Shown one piece after another: positions 1,906 to 63,087 of a stretch of DNA of 64,000 nucleotides. Source of the stretch: Nitrospirae bacterium GWF2_44_13. Lineage in GTDB: Bacteria > Nitrospirota > Thermodesulfovibrionia > Thermodesulfovibrionales > UBA1546. Positions within the stretch are counted from its first letter, which is position 1. Each line of letters starts with the position of its first letter. The stretch spans positions 23,826-87,825 of the forward strand of contig MHEE01000013.1 of the NCBI GenBank assembly GCA_001805105.1, read 5' to 3'. Made by a program: the position numbers and the translations under genes. The notes below the pieces were generated by a model. The model was not told where the DNA came from, did no database searches, and saw only the letters and a program-made list of their open reading frames with translations.

Positions 1906-1937
1906 AAAGCAGTCCAGACAAGTCGGGACTGCTTTTT
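1906..1937 (+). terminator. rho-independent terminator between convergent tRNA-Thr and csp (probably bidirectional)
   Basis: Stem AAAGCAGTCC/GGACTGCTTT with a ~10-nt loop, followed by TTTTT on the + strand. An A-run on the other side gives a weaker minus-strand version. Confidence 0.6.
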
Positions 1938-1940
1938 GGC

Positions 1941-2141
1941 TTAGAGTTTTACAACGTTTGCTGCCTTTGGCCCCTTGGGGCTGTCAACAACATCAAAGCT
2001 CACTGCCTGCCCTTCAGATAGAGACTTAAAGCCATCTCCCTGAAGCTCAGAATAGTGAACAAAAACATCTCCGCCGTCTTCACTGGTTATGAATCCAAAA
2101 CCCTTGGATTCATTAAACCACTTAACGGTTCCTTTTGCCAC
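1941..2141 (-). CDS. csp: cold-shock protein, CspA family
   Basis: ORF track, 66 aa: [25 protein letters not shown] (RNP1/RNP2 motifs). GTG start preceded by AAGGAGG. Confidence 0.95.
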
Positions 2142-9156: not shown

Positions 9157-9184
9157 AGGAATTAGTTTTTAGGTATTAGGAATC
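9157..9184. repeat. heptanucleotide array AGGAATT AGTTTTT AGGTATT AGGAATC immediately upstream of dapF
   Basis: Read directly; four 7-nt units ending 6 nt before the dapF GTG start. Confidence 0.6.
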
Positions 9185-9190
9185 AGCAAA

Positions 9191-10084
9191 GTGAAGATTA
9201 ATTTTACAAAGATGCACGGCCTCGGCAATGACTTCATCTTAATTGACTGCATTACGCAGAAGTTAAAAGTTAAAAGTGAAGAGTTAAAAGTTCTAAGCAA
9301 AAAACTCTGCCACAGGCGGTTCGGCATAGGCTCTGACCAGTTACTCCTGCTTTATCCGTCCGGAACCGCTGATTTCAGGATGCGAATATTTAACGCTGAT
9401 GGCAGCGAGGTGGAGATGTGCGGCAACGGCATAAGATGCCTTGCTAAATATATCTGGAGCAGACGGTTATCCGGAAAGGCCCTTCTTAATATTGAAACCT
9501 TGGCAGGCCTAATAAGGCCTCAGAAAAAAGGCAAACTGGTAAGAGTTGATATGGGAGAACCGTTTTTTGAGCCTGAGAAAATACCCATAAAGATACAGGA
9601 TACACGATACGGGATACAGGATTATCGTGCATCATACATCACGAATCATGCATCACGACCAATCGTTGACTATCCCATAAGGATTGAAGACAGGGAGTTT
9701 AAATTAACCTGTGTTTCAATGGGTAATCCTCATGCTGTAATAGTTGTTGACAACGTTATGGCTTTCCCTGTAATTTATTACGGGCCCTTGCTTGAAATGC
9801 ATGAGATTTTCCCTAAAAGAACTAACGTGGAATTCATAGAGATATTAAATCCCTCGGAAATAAAAATGAGAGTGTGGGAAAGAGGCGCAGGCGAGACAAT
9901 GGCATGCGGCACAGGAGCATCTGCCGCTGCTGTCGCATCCAGCCTTAAAGGGCTTTCAAAGAAGAATGTTACAGTGCATCTCACAGGGGGAGATTTGCTT
10001 GTTGAGTGGGCAAAAGACAATCATGTTTATATGACAGGTACTGCAGAGGAAGTATTTACAGGGGAGATAAGTATTAAATTATAG
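9191..10084 (+). CDS. dapF: diaminopimelate epimerase
   Basis: ORF track, 297 aa. MHGLGNDF, NADGSEVEMCGNG and ACGTGA catalytic Cys blocks. GTG start. Confidence 0.95.
   Translation: MKINFTKMHGLGNDFILIDCITQKLKVKSEELKVLSKKLCHRRFGIGSDQLLLLYPSGTADFRMRIFNADGSEVEMCGNGIRCLAKYIWSRRLSGKALLNIETLAGLIRPQKKGKLVRVDMGEPFFEPEKIPIKIQDTRYGIQDYRASYITNHASRPIVDYPIRIEDREFKLTCVSMGNPHAVIVVDNVMAFPVIYYGPLLEMHEIFPKRTNVEFIEILNPSEIKMRVWERGAGETMACGTGASAAAVASSLKGLSKKNVTVHLTGGDLLVEWAKDNHVYMTGTAEEVFTGEISIKL
9258..9299. repeat. in-frame heptanucleotide array inside dapF (AGAAGTT AAAAGTT AAAAGTG AAGAGTT AAAAGTT CTAAGCA)
   Basis: Read directly. Encodes QKLKVKSEELKVLSKK. Confidence 0.8.
9592..9661. repeat. in-frame heptanucleotide array inside dapF (GATACAG GATACAC GATACGG GATACAG GATTATC GTGCATC ATACATC ACGAATC ATGCATC ACGACCA)
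   Basis: Read directly. Encodes IQDTRYGIQDYRASYITNHASRP, between the conserved MGEPFFEP and VSMGNPH blocks. Confidence 0.85.
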
Positions 10085-27696: not shown

Positions 27697-30234
27697 TTGT
27701 ACGAAAGATATGACCCCAAAAAAGTTGAGCTGAAATGGCAGAAGTACTGGGCTGAGAAAAATATTTTTAAAACAGAACCCGATGCTTCAAAAAAGAAATT
27801 CTACTGCCTTGAAATGTTCCCCTACCCTTCAGGGAAAATACACATGGGCCATGTCAGAAATTATGCAATCGGCGACGTAATAGCAAGATACAAGAGGATG
27901 AGAGGGTTCAATGTCATCCATCCGATGGGATGGGATGCATTTGGAATGCCTGCTGAGAACGCCGCGATAAAAGAGGGAATCCACCCTGCAAAATGGACCT
28001 ACGAAAATATCACCTACATGAAAAAACAGCTTAATCAGTTGGGGCTCAGCTATGACTGGGACAGAGAGGTTACAACATGCAGCCCTGATTACTACAAGTG
28101 GAATCAGTGGTTCTTCCTGAAGATGTATGAGAAGGGGATTGCATACAGGAAATCATCATTTGTGAACTGGTGCCCTTCATGCATGACTGTTCTTGCAAAT
28201 GAGCAGGTTATTGACAATGGATGCTGGAGATGCGATACAGCGGTAATCAAGAAAGAGTTGGAGCAGTGGTTTTTTCGTATTACGCATTATGCAAAAGACC
28301 TCCTGAAGGCGTGTGATGAGCTTAAGGGCTGGCCTGAAAAAGTTATCTTAATGCAAAAGAACTGGATTGGAAAGAGCGAGGGGCTTGAGGCTGATTTCAA
28401 AGTTGCAGGAAGGGACGAAAGAATCCGTATATTCACTACAAGGGCCGACACTTTATTTGGAGCCACATTTGTATGCCTTGCGCCTACACACCCTTTATCA
28501 GAAAAACTCGTTGTTGATAAAGAAGCTCTTAAGAAGGTCAAGGAACACTACGGCAAAGAAGATGAAAAAATTGGGCTCTTTACAGGACACTACGCAACCA
28601 ATCCCGCGAATGATGAGAAGATTCCAATTTATATAGCAAACTTCGTTCTGATGGAATACGGCACAGGAGCAATAATGTCCGTTCCTGCTCATGACCAACG
28701 GGATTTTGAATTTGCAAAAAAGTACAATCTGCCAATACGGGTGGTAATAGAACCAGAGCAGAAGTCAAAACTTACCGAAGCGTACGAAGATGAAGGCATT
28801 CTTGTTGATTCAAATTCTTTTAGCAAGCTAAGAAGTGATGTTGCAAGAATAGAGATAGCAAAGCACATAGAGAAAAAAGGCTTAGGCAAGAGGGTAATAA
28901 ATTACAAGCTCCGTGACTGGGGAATATCAAGGCAGAGATACTGGGGAACGCCGATACCGATAATTTATTGCGAGAAATGCGGTGTTGTTCCAGTCCCTGA
29001 ACAAGAACTGCCGGTAATCCTTCCAGAGGATGTGAAATTCACAGGCACAGGCGGGTCACCACTTGCAGAGTCAGAAAAATTTGTAAATACAATTTGTCCA
29101 AAATGCAAAGGCAAGGCAAGGCGAGAGACTGATACAATGGACACATTTGTTGATTCATCATGGTATTTCATTGCATATTGCGTTGACAATGGAAAGATTA
29201 ATTTCCAATCCCTAACCCCCAATCCCCAATCCCCAATAAGTTACTGGATGCCTGTTGACCAGTATGTCGGCGGTGTTGAACACGCAGTGCTTCATCTCCT
29301 CTATTCAAGATTTTTTACCCGTGTTATAAAAGACCTTGGAATCATTAACTCTCCGGAGCCTTTCACAAACCTTCTCACGCAGGGAATGGTATGTAAAGAA
29401 ACGTTGAAATGTCCTGAGCATGGCTGGCTCTTACCTGAAGATGTTAAGGATGAGAAGTGCATAAAATGCGGAAAGGCTGTTGACATAGGACGGGTTGAAA
29501 AGATGTCAAAATCAAAAAAGAATGTCATTGACCCTGACCATCTTATAAACAGATACGGGGCAGACACATCAAGGCTCTTTTCGCTCTTTGCTGCGCCGCC
29601 TGAAAGAGACCTTGAATGGTCAGACCAGGGGGTTGAGGGTGCATACAGATTCCTGAATAGGATATGGGGACTCTTATATAAAAATAAATTCAAAATTCAA
29701 AATTCAAAATTCAAAATTGAGGAGCTATCAAGCTATCAGCCATCAGCCGTGCGCCTTCTACGAAAAACACATCAGACCATAAAGCGGGTTACAAACGACA
29801 TGGAGCGCGAATACCACTTCAATACAGCGATTGCAGCGCTCATGGAGCTTGTGAATGATCTATGTTCGTTTGAGCCGAAATCAGACGACGACTGGAAAGT
29901 ATTCAGATTCGGCATTGAAGCGCTTCTGCTTTTGCTTTCTCCATTTTCTCCGCACATATCGGAAGAACTGTGGGAATCTATAGGCAACAAAAAAGGCATA
30001 CTTGAACAGAAATGGCCTTTATGGGATGAGAATATCGCAAAAGAAGAAGAAATAGAACTCGTTATTCAGATTAACGGCAAAGTAAAGGCAAAGATTATGA
30101 TAGCTGCGGGGCAGGCGGACGATGAAGTCAGGGGGAAAGCTCTTGGCGAACCCAGGATACAGGAAATTATAAAGGGGAAAACACTGAAAAAAGTCTTTAT
30201 TGTTAAAGGCAAACTTGTTAACATAGTAATATGA
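27697..30234 (+). CDS. leuS: leucine--tRNA ligase
   Basis: ORF track, 845 aa. HMGH and KMSKS class I motifs and a CP1 editing domain. TTG start according to the ORF track. Confidence 0.97.
29203..29237. repeat. in-frame heptanucleotide array inside leuS (TTCCAAT CCCTAAC CCCCAAT CCCCAAT CCCCAAT)
   Basis: Read directly. Encodes [12 protein letters not shown], between [10 protein letters not shown] and YWMPVDQY. Confidence 0.85.
29681..29751. repeat. in-frame heptanucleotide arrays inside leuS (AAAATAA ATTCAAA x4 ATTGAGG, then AGCTATCA AGCTATC AGCCATC AGCCGTG)
   Basis: Read directly. Encodes [24 protein letters not shown]. Confidence 0.85.
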
Positions 30235-30239
30235 CAAGA

Positions 30240-30740
30240 ATGAAAGTTAAAAGTTTTATGTTACTGTCTACTGTCTACTGTCTACTGTTTACTCTCTCCA
30301 GCTGCGGTTATACGCTGCAGGGCAGAGACACGCTGCCCTTTACCTCTGTCAAAATAGGCAGGATTGAAAACAAAACATTTGAACCGAAATTGGAAGATAA
30401 ATTCCAGAAAGCGCTTGCTGATGAACTCATAAGAAACGGAATAATGATTTCAAATAGCGCAAAACATATAATAAACGGCACTATAGATGACCTGAAGCTA
30501 AGCCCCCTCGCAGAAAAAGAAGGCGTAGCATCCGAATATCAGGTAATTATAAAAGCCAAATTTTTTCTTACATCCCCCGACGGGAAGGTCAAAGAGTTAA
30601 GAAACACAGGAGTTTTTATTGTATCTTTTCCAGGTTCGGGCAATATAGAAAGCTTAGTCGCGGCAAAAGAGCAGGCAACAGAAACTGCTATGAGAAATCT
30701 GGCTTCTGAGATACGTGCCGGAATAGTCTATGGCATGTAG
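30240..30740 (+). CDS. lptE: LPS-assembly lipoprotein LptE
   Basis: ORF track. Lipoprotein signal peptide with lipobox LSSC followed by GYTLQGR. Conserved leuS-lptE-holA gene order. Start (30231 or 30240) is uncertain. Confidence 0.7.
   Translation: MKVKSFMLLSTVYCLLFTLSSCGYTLQGRDTLPFTSVKIGRIENKTFEPKLEDKFQKALADELIRNGIMISNSAKHIINGTIDDLKLSPLAEKEGVASEYQVIIKAKFFLTSPDGKVKELRNTGVFIVSFPGSGNIESLVAAKEQATETAMRNLASEIRAGIVYGM
30241..30296. repeat. heptanucleotide array forming the lptE signal-peptide coding region (TGAAAGT TAAAAGT TTTATGT TACTGTC x3 TACTGTT TACTCTC)
   Basis: Read directly. Translates to KVKSFMLLSTVYCLLFTL. Confidence 0.85.
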
Positions 30741-38385: not shown

Positions 38386-38399
38386 TGACTCCTCCTCTT

Positions 38400-38469
38400 G
38401 TTATAAGTTATAAGTTTAAAGTTAGAAGTTTTTGAACTTTTCACTTTTCACTTTTAACTCTCAACTCCC
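38400..38469. repeat. inverted heptanucleotide arrays filling the qmoB-qmoC intercistronic spacer
   Basis: Read directly: GTTATAA GTTATAA GTTTAAA GTTAGAA GTTTTTG, then AACTTTT CACTTTT CACTTTT AACTCTC AACTCCC. The two arms are approximately complementary. Confidence 0.85.
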
Positions 38470-38473
38470 TTAT

Positions 38474-53545: not shown

Positions 53546-54412
53546 CTATAATGCGCGTACTGTAACAATCCTCTCTATGCCTGCATAGTCCTTAATAACA
53601 GAGATATTCCGGAAACCGTTCTGCATAGCGATTTCTGAGACTTCCGCTGCCTGTCCTTCTCCGATTTCAAGAAAGACAACTCCGTTGAGCATCAGGTATT
53701 TGCGCGCCTCCGAAAGTATTGTCCTGTAATAATTGAGCCCATCCTCGCCGCCGTCAAGCGCATTCCTCGGCTCCCACTTCTTTATCTCGGGCTGAAGATT
53801 CGCTATGTCACTGCTTCTGATATATGGAGGGTTTGAGACAATCATATTAAAAGTGACGGGTGACGGGTGACGAGTCACAAGTTGCTTTAAAGGCTCAAAC
53901 AGCGAGCCCTTAAGAAATGTTACATTCCTTATATCGTTAAGCCTTGCATTCTCATTTGCGTACCTTATCGCATCTTTTGATATGTCAGTCCCGTATACCT
54001 CGGCGTCAGGGAAACGCTTTGCTATCGCAAGCGCAAGGCATCCGCTCCCTGTGCAGAGGTCAAGGACTGTGAACTGTGAACTGTGGACTGTGAACTGCTT
54101 TATAACTTCTTCTGCCAGTAATTCCGTCTCAGGCCTCGGAATAAGAACGCCTTTGCCAACCTTTATCTTTAATCCGTAAAATTCCACATATCCGAGGATA
54201 TACTGAAGCGGCTCTCTCTGAGCGCACCTCCGAAGAACAACATCGACGTCCTTTATATTTTTTTCAGAAAGAACAGGGTTATCTCTGTAAAGCGCCGTCT
54301 TGTCTATGCCGAGACAATGAGTAACAATAATTTCCGATTCTTTATGAGCATCGTCAATGCCGCAATTTTCAAGAAACGCTGTGATCTCTTTTATTTTCTC
54401 AAGAGCCTTCAT
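53546..54412 (-). CDS. prmC: peptide chain release factor N5-glutamine methyltransferase
   Basis: ORF track, 288 aa. LDLCTGSGCLA SAM motif and IVSNPPYI catalytic motif. Confidence 0.9.
   Translation of the reverse strand: MKALEKIKEITAFLENCGIDDAHKESEIIVTHCLGIDKTALYRDNPVLSEKNIKDVDVVLRRCAQREPLQYILGYVEFYGLKIKVGKGVLIPRPETELLAEEVIKQFTVHSSQFTVLDLCTGSGCLALAIAKRFPDAEVYGTDISKDAIRYANENARLNDIRNVTFLKGSLFEPLKQLVTRHPSPVTFNMIVSNPPYIRSSDIANLQPEIKKWEPRNALDGGEDGLNYYRTILSEARKYLMLNGVVFLEIGEGQAAEVSEIAMQNGFRNISVIKDYAGIERIVTVRAL
53853..53880. repeat. in-frame heptanucleotide array inside prmC (GTGACGG GTGACGG GTGACGA GTCACAA)
   Basis: Read directly. On the coding (minus) strand it encodes LVTRHPSPVT just before NMIVSNPPY. 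Confidence 0.85.
54065..54099. repeat. in-frame heptanucleotide array inside prmC (GACTGTG AACTGTG AACTGTG GACTGTG AACTGCT)
   Basis: Read directly. Encodes QFTVHSSQFTV immediately before LDLCTGSG. Confidence 0.85.
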
Positions 54413-61601: not shown

Positions 61602-62042
61602 TTAGATTGTTTCTGCTTTACCGCCTGCAGCGGCAATCTTGGCTGCAGCTGCAGCGCTGAATATTTTCGCCTTTATTGTAACGGGTCTTTTTATCTCGCC
61701 GGCACCGAGTATCTTGATTCCGTCTTTAATCTGCCTGACTACCCCTCTTTCAACAAGCAGTCCAGGTGTTATAACATCACTGTCTTCAATCCTTGCAAGG
61801 TCTTTCAGGTTTATTACTGCATATTCCTTAGCAAAATGATTTTTAAACCCTCTCTTGGGGATTCTCCTCTGCAACGGCATCTGCCCACCTTCAAAACCTG
61901 CTCCTTTTCCGCTGCCGGCGCGCGCTTTCTGCCCTTTATGACCCTTGCAGGACGTCTTGCCATGGCCCGAACCTATTCCGCGGCCTACTCTCTTATTTCT
62001 TTTTCTGCAGCCGTCTGCGGGCTTTAAATCATCTAGCCTCAT
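61602..62042 (-). CDS. rplO: 50S ribosomal protein L15
   Basis: ORF track, 146 aa. [23 protein letters not shown] overlap with the rpsE stop. Confidence 0.97.
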
Positions 62043-62560
62043 CTAACTCCTCCGCTATTTTCCTGCGCTTCTTCCTCTGTCCTTCCCCTCAATCTGCGGA
62101 CTGCATCAGGGTCCTTAAGCTTTAACAGCCCGTCAATAGTAGCCTCTGCGGTATTGTAAGGATTATGGCTGCCGATTGCTTTGGCAACAATATCCTGTAT
62201 GCCGGCAACATCCAGCACTGCCCTTACAGCGCCGCCTGCGATAAGTCCTGTGCCTTTGACTGCAGGATTCATAACGATATAACCGGAACCGAACCTGCCT
62301 GTTATCCTGTGGGGGATTGTTCCATCTTTCATGGGGAATTTAACCAATGATTTCTTTGCCTGCTCAACAGCCTTTCTTATTGCCTCAGGGACTTCTTTTG
62401 CCTTGCCTTTACCAATGCCCACGATGCCGTCTCCATTTCCAACAGCAACCAGCGCAGCAAAAGAAAATCTTCTTCCGCCCTTCACAACCTTTGCAACTCT
62501 GTTTATAAATACAACCTTATCTTTTAAAGTCAGTCCATCCGGATCAATTCTTTTCACCAT
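62039..62560 (-). CDS. rpsE: 30S ribosomal protein S5
   Basis: ORF track, 173 aa. ...[21 protein letters not shown]... Confidence 0.97.
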
Positions 62561-62573
62561 ACCCCCTGTTACA

Positions 62574-62664
62574 AAAAGTTCAAAGTTGAAAGTTCAAAGT
62601 TGACAATTAACAATTCAAAATGAAGGATTCCATAATTTTTCATTTTGCTTTTTGAATTTTGCAT
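62574..62664. repeat. inverted heptanucleotide arrays filling the rplR-rpsE spacer
   Basis: Read directly: AAAAGTT CAAAGTT GAAAGTT CAAAGTT GACAATT AACAATT CAAAATG ... TTTTCAT TTTGCTT TTTGAAT TTTGCAT TTTAAAA. CAAAATGA pairs with TCATTTTG. Confidence 0.85.
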
Positions 62665-62665
62665 T

Positions 62666-63034
62666 TTAAAACTCAAGTCCGTTTTCTCTGGCAGCATCAG
62701 CTAAGGCCTTAACCCTGCCATGATAAAGATAGCCGCCCCTGTCAAAAACAACCCTCTTTATCCCCTTTTTTAATGCCTTCTTGGCTATGAGCTCGCCAAC
62801 TTGCTTTGCCGCACTAATATTGCCCTTTCCGGACTTCTTATCTTTACCTTTCAGCTCTTTATCAAGGCTTGATGCGGCAGCAATAGTGCTGCCCTTGAAA
62901 TCATCTATAATCTGTGCATACATATGTGACAGGCTCCTGTAAACTGACAGCCTCGGCCTCTCAGTTGTGCCCGCAACTTTTTTCCTTATTCTTTCATGCC
63001 TTCTTGTTCTTGCGTCCTTTATCTCTGCTGCCAA
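62666..63034 (-). CDS. rplR: 50S ribosomal protein L18
   Basis: ORF track, 122 aa. ...[18 protein letters not shown]...[17 protein letters not shown]. Confidence 0.97.
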
Positions 63035-63052: not shown

Positions 63053-63087
63053 ATTTTAAAATTCATTAATTTTGAATTTTGAATTTA
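63053..63087. repeat. heptanucleotide array (NAATTTT units) in the rplF-rplR spacer
   Basis: Read directly: ATTTTAA AATTCAT TAATTTT GAATTTT GAATTTA. Runs from the rplF stop codon towards the rplR RBS. Confidence 0.65.

Follow-up and report, generated by a model that had tools for sequence, protein, structure and literature searches.

How does the gene of a conserved enzyme come to contain tandem repeats whose unit, 7 nucleotides (nt), is not divisible by three? The question is raised by dapF, the gene of diaminopimelate epimerase, in a stretch of 64,000 nt from Nitrospirae bacterium GWF2_44_13 (assembly GCA_001805105.1, contig MHEE01000013.1, positions 23,826-87,825, forward strand), hereafter called the window. 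dapF is a core gene for the cell wall and the lysine pathway, with a housekeeping, biosynthetic role. Two of its segments in the window are built from degenerate heptamers. We consider it probable, at roughly 0.7, that these segments are heptameric microsatellites made by slippage and kept where they were stop-free and in frame, at sites of the protein that tolerate them, the peptide that they encode being approximately neutral.

Array 1 (9258..9292, plus strand) is formed by five heptamers, AGAAGTT, AAAAGTT, AAAAGTG, AAGAGTT and AAAAGTT, which agree with the consensus AAAAGTT at 6, 7, 6, 6 and 7 of 7 positions, and which encode residues 23-34 (QKLKVKSEELKV). Array 2 has two parts. The first, array 2a (9592..9626, plus strand), reads GATACAG, GATACAC, GATACGG and GATACAG, followed by GATTATC (7, 6, 6, 7 and 3 of 7 positions agreeing with the consensus), and encodes residues 135-146 (IQDTRYGIQDYR). 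The second, array 2b (9627..9658, plus strand, residues 146-156), is a decayed run of the ATGCATC or CRTGCAT type, GTGCATC, ATACATC, ACGAATC and ATGCATC, with a super-period of 14 nt. Sequences and translations had been reported for 9258-9299 and 9592-9661 in a first-pass annotation of this DNA, and they are correct; Tandem Repeats Finder (TRF) calls the arrays independently, with period 7 at 9260-9292 (4.7 copies, 84% matches), period 7 at 9592-9622 (4.4 copies, 83% matches) and period 14 at 9631-9658 (2 copies, 92% matches). The units listed in that annotation also stand, save the last one of each array: CTAAGCA and ACGACCA agree with the consensus at only 3/7 and 2/7 positions, and form part of the conserved flank, outside the arrays.

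Self-identity at lag 7 reaches 0.74 over 9258-9299 and 0.63 over 9592-9661, against 0.1-0.4 at neighbouring lags. Within the best 35 nt of dapF, 23 of 28 comparisons match at lag 7, a score that neither 2000 synonymous-codon shuffles (maximum 22) nor 2000 codon permutations (maximum 19) attained, so that the excess of lag-7 autocorrelation over shuffled controls expected from the first inspection is present with either control. At 4.7 and 4.4 head-to-tail copies, and above chance in these shuffles, arrays 1 and 2a qualify as heptameric simple sequence repeats (SSRs), defined here by three copies or more.

The reading frame has left a mark on array 1. A perfect (AAGTTAA)n in the frame of dapF would give QKLKVKS*KLKV, with a stop codon, and the actual peptide is QKLKVKSEELKV. 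At codon E30 (GAA, 9278..9280, plus strand) a T-to-G change away from the array consensus abolishes an in-frame TAA, and therefore selection shapes the array. In array 2, the peptide shows a repeat of 7 amino acids (aa), IQDTRYG/IQDYRAS, because three units of 7 nt restore the frame. A coiled-coil or heptad peptide repeat was considered and rejected, as such a repeat would form a helix with an amphipathic a-d pattern and the segment is predicted to be non-helical and disordered. A structural RNA element in dapF was ruled out as well: the two arrays have no RNA structure beyond that of shuffled sequences (z-scores +0.43 and −0.14). Finally, a minus-strand open reading frame (ORF) of 52 aa at 9169-9327, over array 1, falls within dapF and is taken to be spurious.

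The gene itself (9191..10084, plus strand, 297 aa, GTG start) was delimited by its ORF call, by the Pfam family PF01678, by matches in the PDB and by an AlphaFold2 model. PF01678 matches the protein in two stretches (E=8e-67, 223 bits versus a Pfam gathering score of 34.7), solved DapF structures are found with HMMER at a best E=6e-73, and the two DAP_epimerase domains, the catalytic cysteine pair and the DapF fold are all there. The two catalytic codons, Cys77 (9419..9421, plus strand, in EMCGNG) and Cys239 (9905..9907, plus strand, in ACGTGA), align with the MCGNG and ACGTGA motifs of solved DapF proteins, and both columns are invariant in 52 sequences of the clade. Orthology and a neighbouring dapA suggest that the product is an active epimerase, essential to its host. 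The insert of array 2 is presumably translated along with the rest; tryptic peptides predicted from this DapF are YGIQDYR and ASYITNHASRPIVDYPIR.

Is array 2 an insertion, and how old is the habit of carrying one? We aligned 120 DapF homologues, the best of which all belong to metagenome-assembled genomes of Nitrospirota/Thermodesulfovibrionales. The segment between IPVKI and IIDYPL spans 8-47 aa among them; it has 27 aa in the window, 19 more than in the shortest members of the clade (P0044, P0068 and P0082, 8 aa). Basal members of the clade have 8 aa, and array-free sister lineages, such as those of L107 and L138, have an 8-aa loop. At the DNA level, a clade-specific pattern applied to metagenome contigs gave 119 dapF loci, and together with the matches listed from a scan of genome contigs the comparison covered at least 164 dapF genes, that of the window included. 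Among these, in nearly all DapF of less than about 57% identity, query residues 133-159 correspond to 8-11 aa. Members of the clade, a subgroup of the Thermodesulfovibrionales whose DapF is at least 63% identical, have 9-32 aa in this segment, and 12 aa or more in all loci except one. This difference in length bears out the proposal of a lineage-specific insertion for array 2, and homologous peptides of the same length, free of 7-nt periodicity and carried by unrelated phyla, did not appear in the DapF comparison.

For almost all inserted loops of the clade, 7 is the best lag. The loop arrays of relatives are near-perfect, their units differ, and every one of them starts directly after the IPVKI codons. 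We found (AAGTCAG)×5 in locus L142, (AAGTTCA)×4 followed by (AAAACTY)×4 in L182, (TCAGCAG)×4-5 in L148 (four copies) and L139, (AGTTSAA)×5 in L190, L157 and L111, (GAAGGCA)×4 in L165, (GGGGCAA)×4 in L185, (CCATCAC) in L122 and (CCTTCAT) in L106. The loop peptides resemble translated heptamers accordingly, as in NSKLKTQNSKL, QKSEVRSQKSE, QQSAVSSQQS and LSTLNSQLSTL. (The TCAGCAG unit comes within one mismatch of CAACAGT, which we take to be the sequence of the cyanobacterial repeat STRR3; this is a similarity only.) Since the lag-7 periodicity of dapF exceeds that of synonymous shuffles, and since relatives carry heptamers of other units at the same sites, the origin of these segments lies at the level of DNA, as had been supposed from the sequence of the window.

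At the N-terminal site, that of array 1 (residues 20-40), most relatives have 21 aa, of lineage-specific sequence. Among the aligned proteins, P0011, P0014, P0020 and P0027 have 7 aa more, and P0048 has 7 aa less, than their near neighbours. For the loop, lengths within close pairs differ by 7 aa in 71 pairs, by 6 aa in 37 and by 8 aa in 22, counts that are phylogenetically non-independent and beside which a difference of 4 aa is equally common. The loop core is 68% identical where the remaining protein is 93% identical. In at least 163 related loci with near-full-length matches the dapF ORF is uninterrupted; loci with interrupted frames had been excluded beforehand, in uncounted number.

Closer relatives allowed us to follow the turnover of units. 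The dapF of L204 (99.4% identical) has the same arrays as the window. L200 (88% identical) reads (CGTGCAT)(CGTGCAT)(CATGCAT)(CATGCAT) at the stretch of array 2b, of which the copy in the window is a decayed version; the decay is such that a clear period of 7 is visible only in L200, as (CRTGCAT)×4. L203 lacks exactly 21 nt relative to the window, that is three GATACAG units, and 21 nt is the smallest slippage product that preserves the frame. Copy-number polymorphism between relatives thus exists, in the form of this deletion and of the variants of plus or minus 7 aa. Single-unit variants were not seen, as expected under selection for the frame. The N-terminal site has one and the same length in the window and in L200, yet three adjacent units differ by the same three substitutions (xAGTTAA versus xAACTCA), which argues for concerted evolution within the array. 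An assembly artefact is ruled out, since assemblies made independently (L204, L200, L201, L202 and L203) contain these arrays too.

Rates of divergence were compared with two of these relatives. The loop arrays are 87% identical to those of L200 and 80% identical to those of L203, against 83% and 81% at third-codon positions in the rest of dapF; their pace of divergence is about that of third-codon positions. For the N-terminal array, identity falls to 64% and 52%; it diverges faster than third-codon sites, and therefore an added process of repeat turnover is at work there.

What do the two arrays do to the protein? AlphaFold2, run on DapF with an alignment of 52 sequences, gave a model with a mean predicted local distance difference test (pLDDT) of 85.7. 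Foldseek superposes it on structures 8qzy, 4ijz, 5ha4, 2otn and 9mro with template modelling (TM) scores of 0.86-0.92, normalised by the target. Residues 140-157 (9608..9661, plus strand), in the inserted loop, are predicted to be disordered, and are the sole segment of the model with a pLDDT below 50. In HMMER alignments the insert of array 2 is missing from 9mro, 2otn and 5ha4, and alignment gaps make the segment 16-17 aa longer than in 9mro and 2otn. The model therefore supports the view, already taken in the first-pass annotation, that the insert is tolerated, here as a predicted disordered loop within an intact and confidently modelled DapF fold. Both arrays had been expected in surface loops. 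This holds for array 2 and fails for array 1, which maps in the model to the end of a short helix (residues 20-23), a turn, and the start of helix α1 (residues 29-39). Because it sits on this helix-turn-helix N-cap, with a pLDDT of 83-88, and because the length of the segment is within the normal range of DapF, array 1 is, as modelled, a rewritten structured segment and not an inserted loop.

Period 7 is preferred well beyond dapF. A strict scan of the window at lags 4-15 found six arrays at lag 7, one at lag 14 and none at the other lags. The motif AAAGTTNAAAGTT, with at most one mismatch, occurs 15 times in the window, at about seven loci, versus 0.91 expected, and none of 100 shuffles reaches 15; the AAAGTTN family of array 1 is indeed shared with intergenic arrays, as had been noticed at first sight. 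TRF was then applied to 23 loci of the clade (244 kb, made up of the 64-kb window and about 180 kb of related loci) and to other DapF-bearing loci (787 kb). Per 100 kb, it counted 18.8 arrays of period 7 and 8.2 of period 14 in the former, and 6.6 and 2.7 in the latter; periods other than 7 and 14 show no excess in the clade loci. Enrichment in period 7 is therefore a property of the lineage, as far as the window and the related loci go. The 46 arrays of the clade have 37 canonical units, which argues for a length-specific process rather than for one mobile sequence.

These observations can be assembled as follows. The Thermodesulfovibrionales lineage would be strongly, and length-specifically, prone to form tandem arrays of 7 nt, most likely by slipped-strand mispairing in replication or repair. 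Arrays would arise everywhere in the genome, and survive in coding sequence if they are stop-free in all three phases, change the net length by a multiple of 3, and fall at a structurally tolerant site. In DapF, tolerance of this kind would exist at two places: where the C-terminal domain begins, in the loop that follows the IPVKI strand, and at the turn with the start of helix α1. There, units would be gained and lost, only 3-unit changes (21 nt, 7 aa) surviving; variant units would spread through an array by concerted evolution, and point mutations would degrade it. The arrays of the window would be old and decayed, and stabilised because of that decay. The peptide would be a by-product, evolving roughly neutrally, and not a selected motif. 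Slippage as the molecular mechanism is suggested by the pattern of polymorphism and by the concerted changes of units, and the neutrality of the peptide by its divergence from two relatives.

Recombination may also have reshuffled the two sites. The N-terminal site is of the KVKSEE or the KTQDSE type and the loop of the QDTRY... or the SSKF... type, and all four combinations are found among P0002, P0003, P0006 and the window (84% identity or more); P0024, which is 75% identical, has the loop type of the window, and P0003, at 86%, does not. Judged from these sequences, the mixture suggests recombination within dapF between related populations. We observed, moreover, a GC-rich in-frame palindrome of about 40 nt (AATCCCCCCTYACCCCCCTTT...AAAGGGGGGCAGGGGGG; CCCCCYTT...AARGGGGG), encoding NPPLPPFxKGGxGG, at both DapF sites in many relatives (L111, L168, L002, L185, L157 and L084), where it often adjoins a heptamer array. 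The palindrome forms a hairpin when folded (z −3.3 and −2.4), and a pattern search found no copy of it in the window. The two sites are permissive, because both also accept this unrelated sequence.

dapF is not a special case in the window: leuS, prmC and lptE also have in-frame heptamer arrays, at variable positions. In leuS (27697-30234, plus strand), encoding leucyl-tRNA synthetase, (CCAATCC)×4.7 at 29205-29237 adds about 5 aa relative to PDB entry 6q89, and (AAATTCA)×4.7 at 29686-29718, followed by two copies of AGCTATCA up to 29738, leaves the length unchanged. The release-factor glutamine methyltransferase gene prmC/hemK (53546-54412, minus strand) has (GTGACGG)×2.9 at 53853-53872, which adds 6 aa relative to 1sg9 directly before the NPPY motif, and (ACTGTGA)×4.6 at 54066-54097, which encodes KQFTVHSSQFTV and adds 1 aa. 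In lptE (30231-30740, plus strand), a predicted lipoprotein signal peptide at 30243-30297 comes mostly from AAAGTTAAAAGTT and (TACTGTC)×4-5; the latter encodes its core, LLSTVYCLLFTL (30262-30297), so that the hydrophobic core of this signal peptide appears to be derived from the repeat.

Other arrays of the window are intergenic. Inverted pairs, in which AAGTTNN units are followed by their complement, were seen at 38400-38459 and 1643-1713. The first can form a long hairpin (38392-38470, −17.5 kcal/mol, z −2.7); the second, immediately past the stop codon that ends the gene at 673-1644, folds no better than shuffles (1636-1720, z 0.03). A gene for a cold-shock-domain protein (about 1917-2117, minus strand) lies some 200 nt from the arrays at 1643-1713, an observation of proximity only. 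In the ribosomal protein operon (minus strand), heptamer arrays are found at 62575-62667 and 63068-63086, between rplF, rplR and the next gene downstream (62039-62560, minus strand). On the mRNA strand, (CAACTTT/GAACTTT)×4, the array at 62575-62603, ends about 15 nt before the start codon of the gene at 62039-62560, and (AAATTCA)×2.7 lies 30-50 nt before the start of rplR.

Such placement invites a functional explanation, in which the heptamers are cis-elements bound by single-strand-binding proteins of the cold-shock-domain or S1 kind, and the copies in dapF modulate translation or stability of its mRNA. The intergenic arrays that immediately precede the starts of ribosomal-protein genes (62575-62603, 63068-63086) or follow stops (1643-1713) can be likened to the TAACTGA arrays of Beggiatoaceae, for which binding by cold-shock proteins or S1 was proposed (PMC4679880), and the over-representation of the AAAGTTN family (15 versus 0.91 expected) and the cold-shock-domain gene near one pair of arrays go in the same direction. 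As an account of dapF we find it improbable, given that units differ completely between lineages at one DapF site, that the clade loci have 37 unit types among 46 arrays, that in the window's dapF the arrays have decayed and change as fast as third-codon positions do, and that they lack RNA structure better than random. The same diversity of units tells against arrays having been imported ready-made into dapF, by recombination or by some repeat-writing or mobile mechanism, rather than grown in place. No target duplications or element ends are visible bordering the arrays, and the 3-unit deletion and the substitutions shared unit by unit are what turnover in place predicts. A unit family, AAAGTTS, is nevertheless common to the DapF loops of L190, L157, L111, L182 and L001 and is present at many other loci, the four combinations of N-terminal site and loop occur among close relatives, and the GC palindrome is a different repeat that also landed at both sites. 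Import is improbable as the whole explanation; import by recombination probably contributes, without replacing turnover in place, and is partly compatible with slippage.

Selection at the level of the protein, for 7-residue repeats that give DapF, for example, a new loop for interaction or regulation, could be argued from the retention of the insert through a whole subclade with a frame that is always open. We regard it as very unlikely: the peptides are wholly different between lineages, the reading phase shifts from one unit to the next, through all three, the loop is modelled as disordered, its core is 68% identical against 93% for the remaining protein, and the DNA is periodic beyond what the peptide requires (0 of 2000 synonymous shuffles). 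That dapF could be a phase-variable contingency locus, switched on and off by slippage of a single unit, is suggested by a unit not divisible by three, of which a one-unit change shifts the frame, and by the perfect 5-unit arrays of some relatives. This is extremely improbable for a housekeeping biosynthetic gene whose arrays are interrupted in the window (units agreeing at 6-7 of 7 positions, decayed ends), for which 3-unit variants are the only ones seen, and whose ORF is uninterrupted in the 163 or more related loci, a survey that had left out an uncounted number of loci with interrupted frames.

Some points weigh against neutral, slippage-born microsatellites. Slippage, as proposed, does not account for the length of 7 nt. 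The AAAGTTN family recurs at about seven loci of the window and in the DapF loops of several relatives, which might point to a preferred sequence or to a protein that binds it, instead of a process driven purely by length. The arrays of all lineages begin at exactly the same codon boundary, plausibly as a result of the continuous turnover of one ancient array. All four combinations of N-terminal site and loop exist, and therefore recombination or import of ready-made arrays also contributes. Lastly, neutrality is judged from the divergence with only two relatives. In a more speculative scheme, which we think rather unlikely, a process of the lineage, dedicated or intrinsic to a polymerase, would write 7-nt arrays as sites for a single-strand-binding regulator, and spillover of this process would create new loops in core enzymes. 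The regulator may be, for instance, the cold-shock-domain protein encoded beside one array, and its sites may be at gene starts and ends. If such a process exists, the DapF loop, whose array changes from almost every lineage to the next at one fixed codon boundary, is a direct readout of it, and the process a standing generator of rapidly replaced loops.

Slipped microsatellites, the reading that we prefer, belong to a known class. Heptamers are the most abundant class of long SSRs in many prokaryotes, according to Mrazek et al. 2007 as reported in PMC4679880, and slippage linked to the polymerase has been proposed for them (same work, via PMC4679880; PMC4692102). The arrays described here share with those SSRs the head-to-tail 7-nt units, the over-representation of period 7, a genome-wide occurrence with intergenic preference, and slippage as the proposed origin. 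They differ in that they occur inside conserved enzymes throughout a clade, at sites that stay fixed while the units turn over. As reported in PMC4679880 and PMC4692102, Mrazek, Guo & Shah 2007 held units divisible by three to be the likeliest in coding regions. The known heptamer families, in cyanobacteria, Xanthomonas and Beggiatoaceae, are mainly intergenic and under-represented in genes (PMC4692102), and the translated copies belong for the most part to hypothetical proteins or sit at the termini of proteins (PMC4679880).

Among these families, the TAACTGA repeats of marine Beggiatoaceae, some cyanobacteria and Bacteroidetes (MacGregor 2015, PMC4679880) are likewise heptamers in 2-6 copies. 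Many are located a short way upstream of start codons, those of ribosomal-protein operons among them, a placement matched by the rplF/rplR arrays of the window, and a few are translated in frame as 7-aa repeats (LSVISYQ), in which they resemble the case of dapF (PMC4679880). That system has one dominant unit, in contrast to the dozens of units found here, and its copies within ORFs differ from arrays that are internal to DapF, LeuS and PrmC; neither TAACTGA nor its complement is among the TRF consensus units of the window, whose arrays are not of that family. The STRR heptamers of cyanobacteria and the GGGNATC repeats of Nostoc and Xanthomonas (Rehm et al. 2015, PMC4692102) are also dispersed families of tandem heptamers, sometimes in inverted arrays able to form hairpins (PMC4692102), to which the pair at 38400-38459 is a counterpart. 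They are G-rich, form G-quadruplexes and show under-representation within coding sequence (PMC4692102), whereas the units here are mostly A/T-rich and of different sequence. Phase-variable contingency loci, too, have a non-triplet SSR within a reading frame; dapF differs from them in being a housekeeping gene with degenerate arrays and in-frame variants only.

The underlying class, heptamer SSRs, is thus established, and what appears new is the presence, clade-wide, of arrays inside enzymes at fixed sites with turnover. A literature search for heptanucleotide or tandem repeats in Nitrospirae, Thermodesulfovibrio and Magnetobacterium returned nothing relevant, the Thermodesulfovibrionales being named in none of the papers found, and no report was found of clade-wide in-frame heptamers inside conserved enzymes with turnover of units, in a coverage from which most subscription journals are absent.

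Heptamers have been recognised since 2007 as the commonest long simple repeat of many bacteria, and have been described as intergenic and avoided in genes. The dapF loci provide a natural series in which the birth, turnover and decay of arrays can be followed under a known constraint, the reading frame. They also make a clear case of protein sequence created by a repeat process at the DNA level, and not by selection of a peptide. There is a practical warning, too: the hypervariable, low-complexity loops in the housekeeping proteins of these genomes derive from repeats, and will lead alignments and phylogenies astray.

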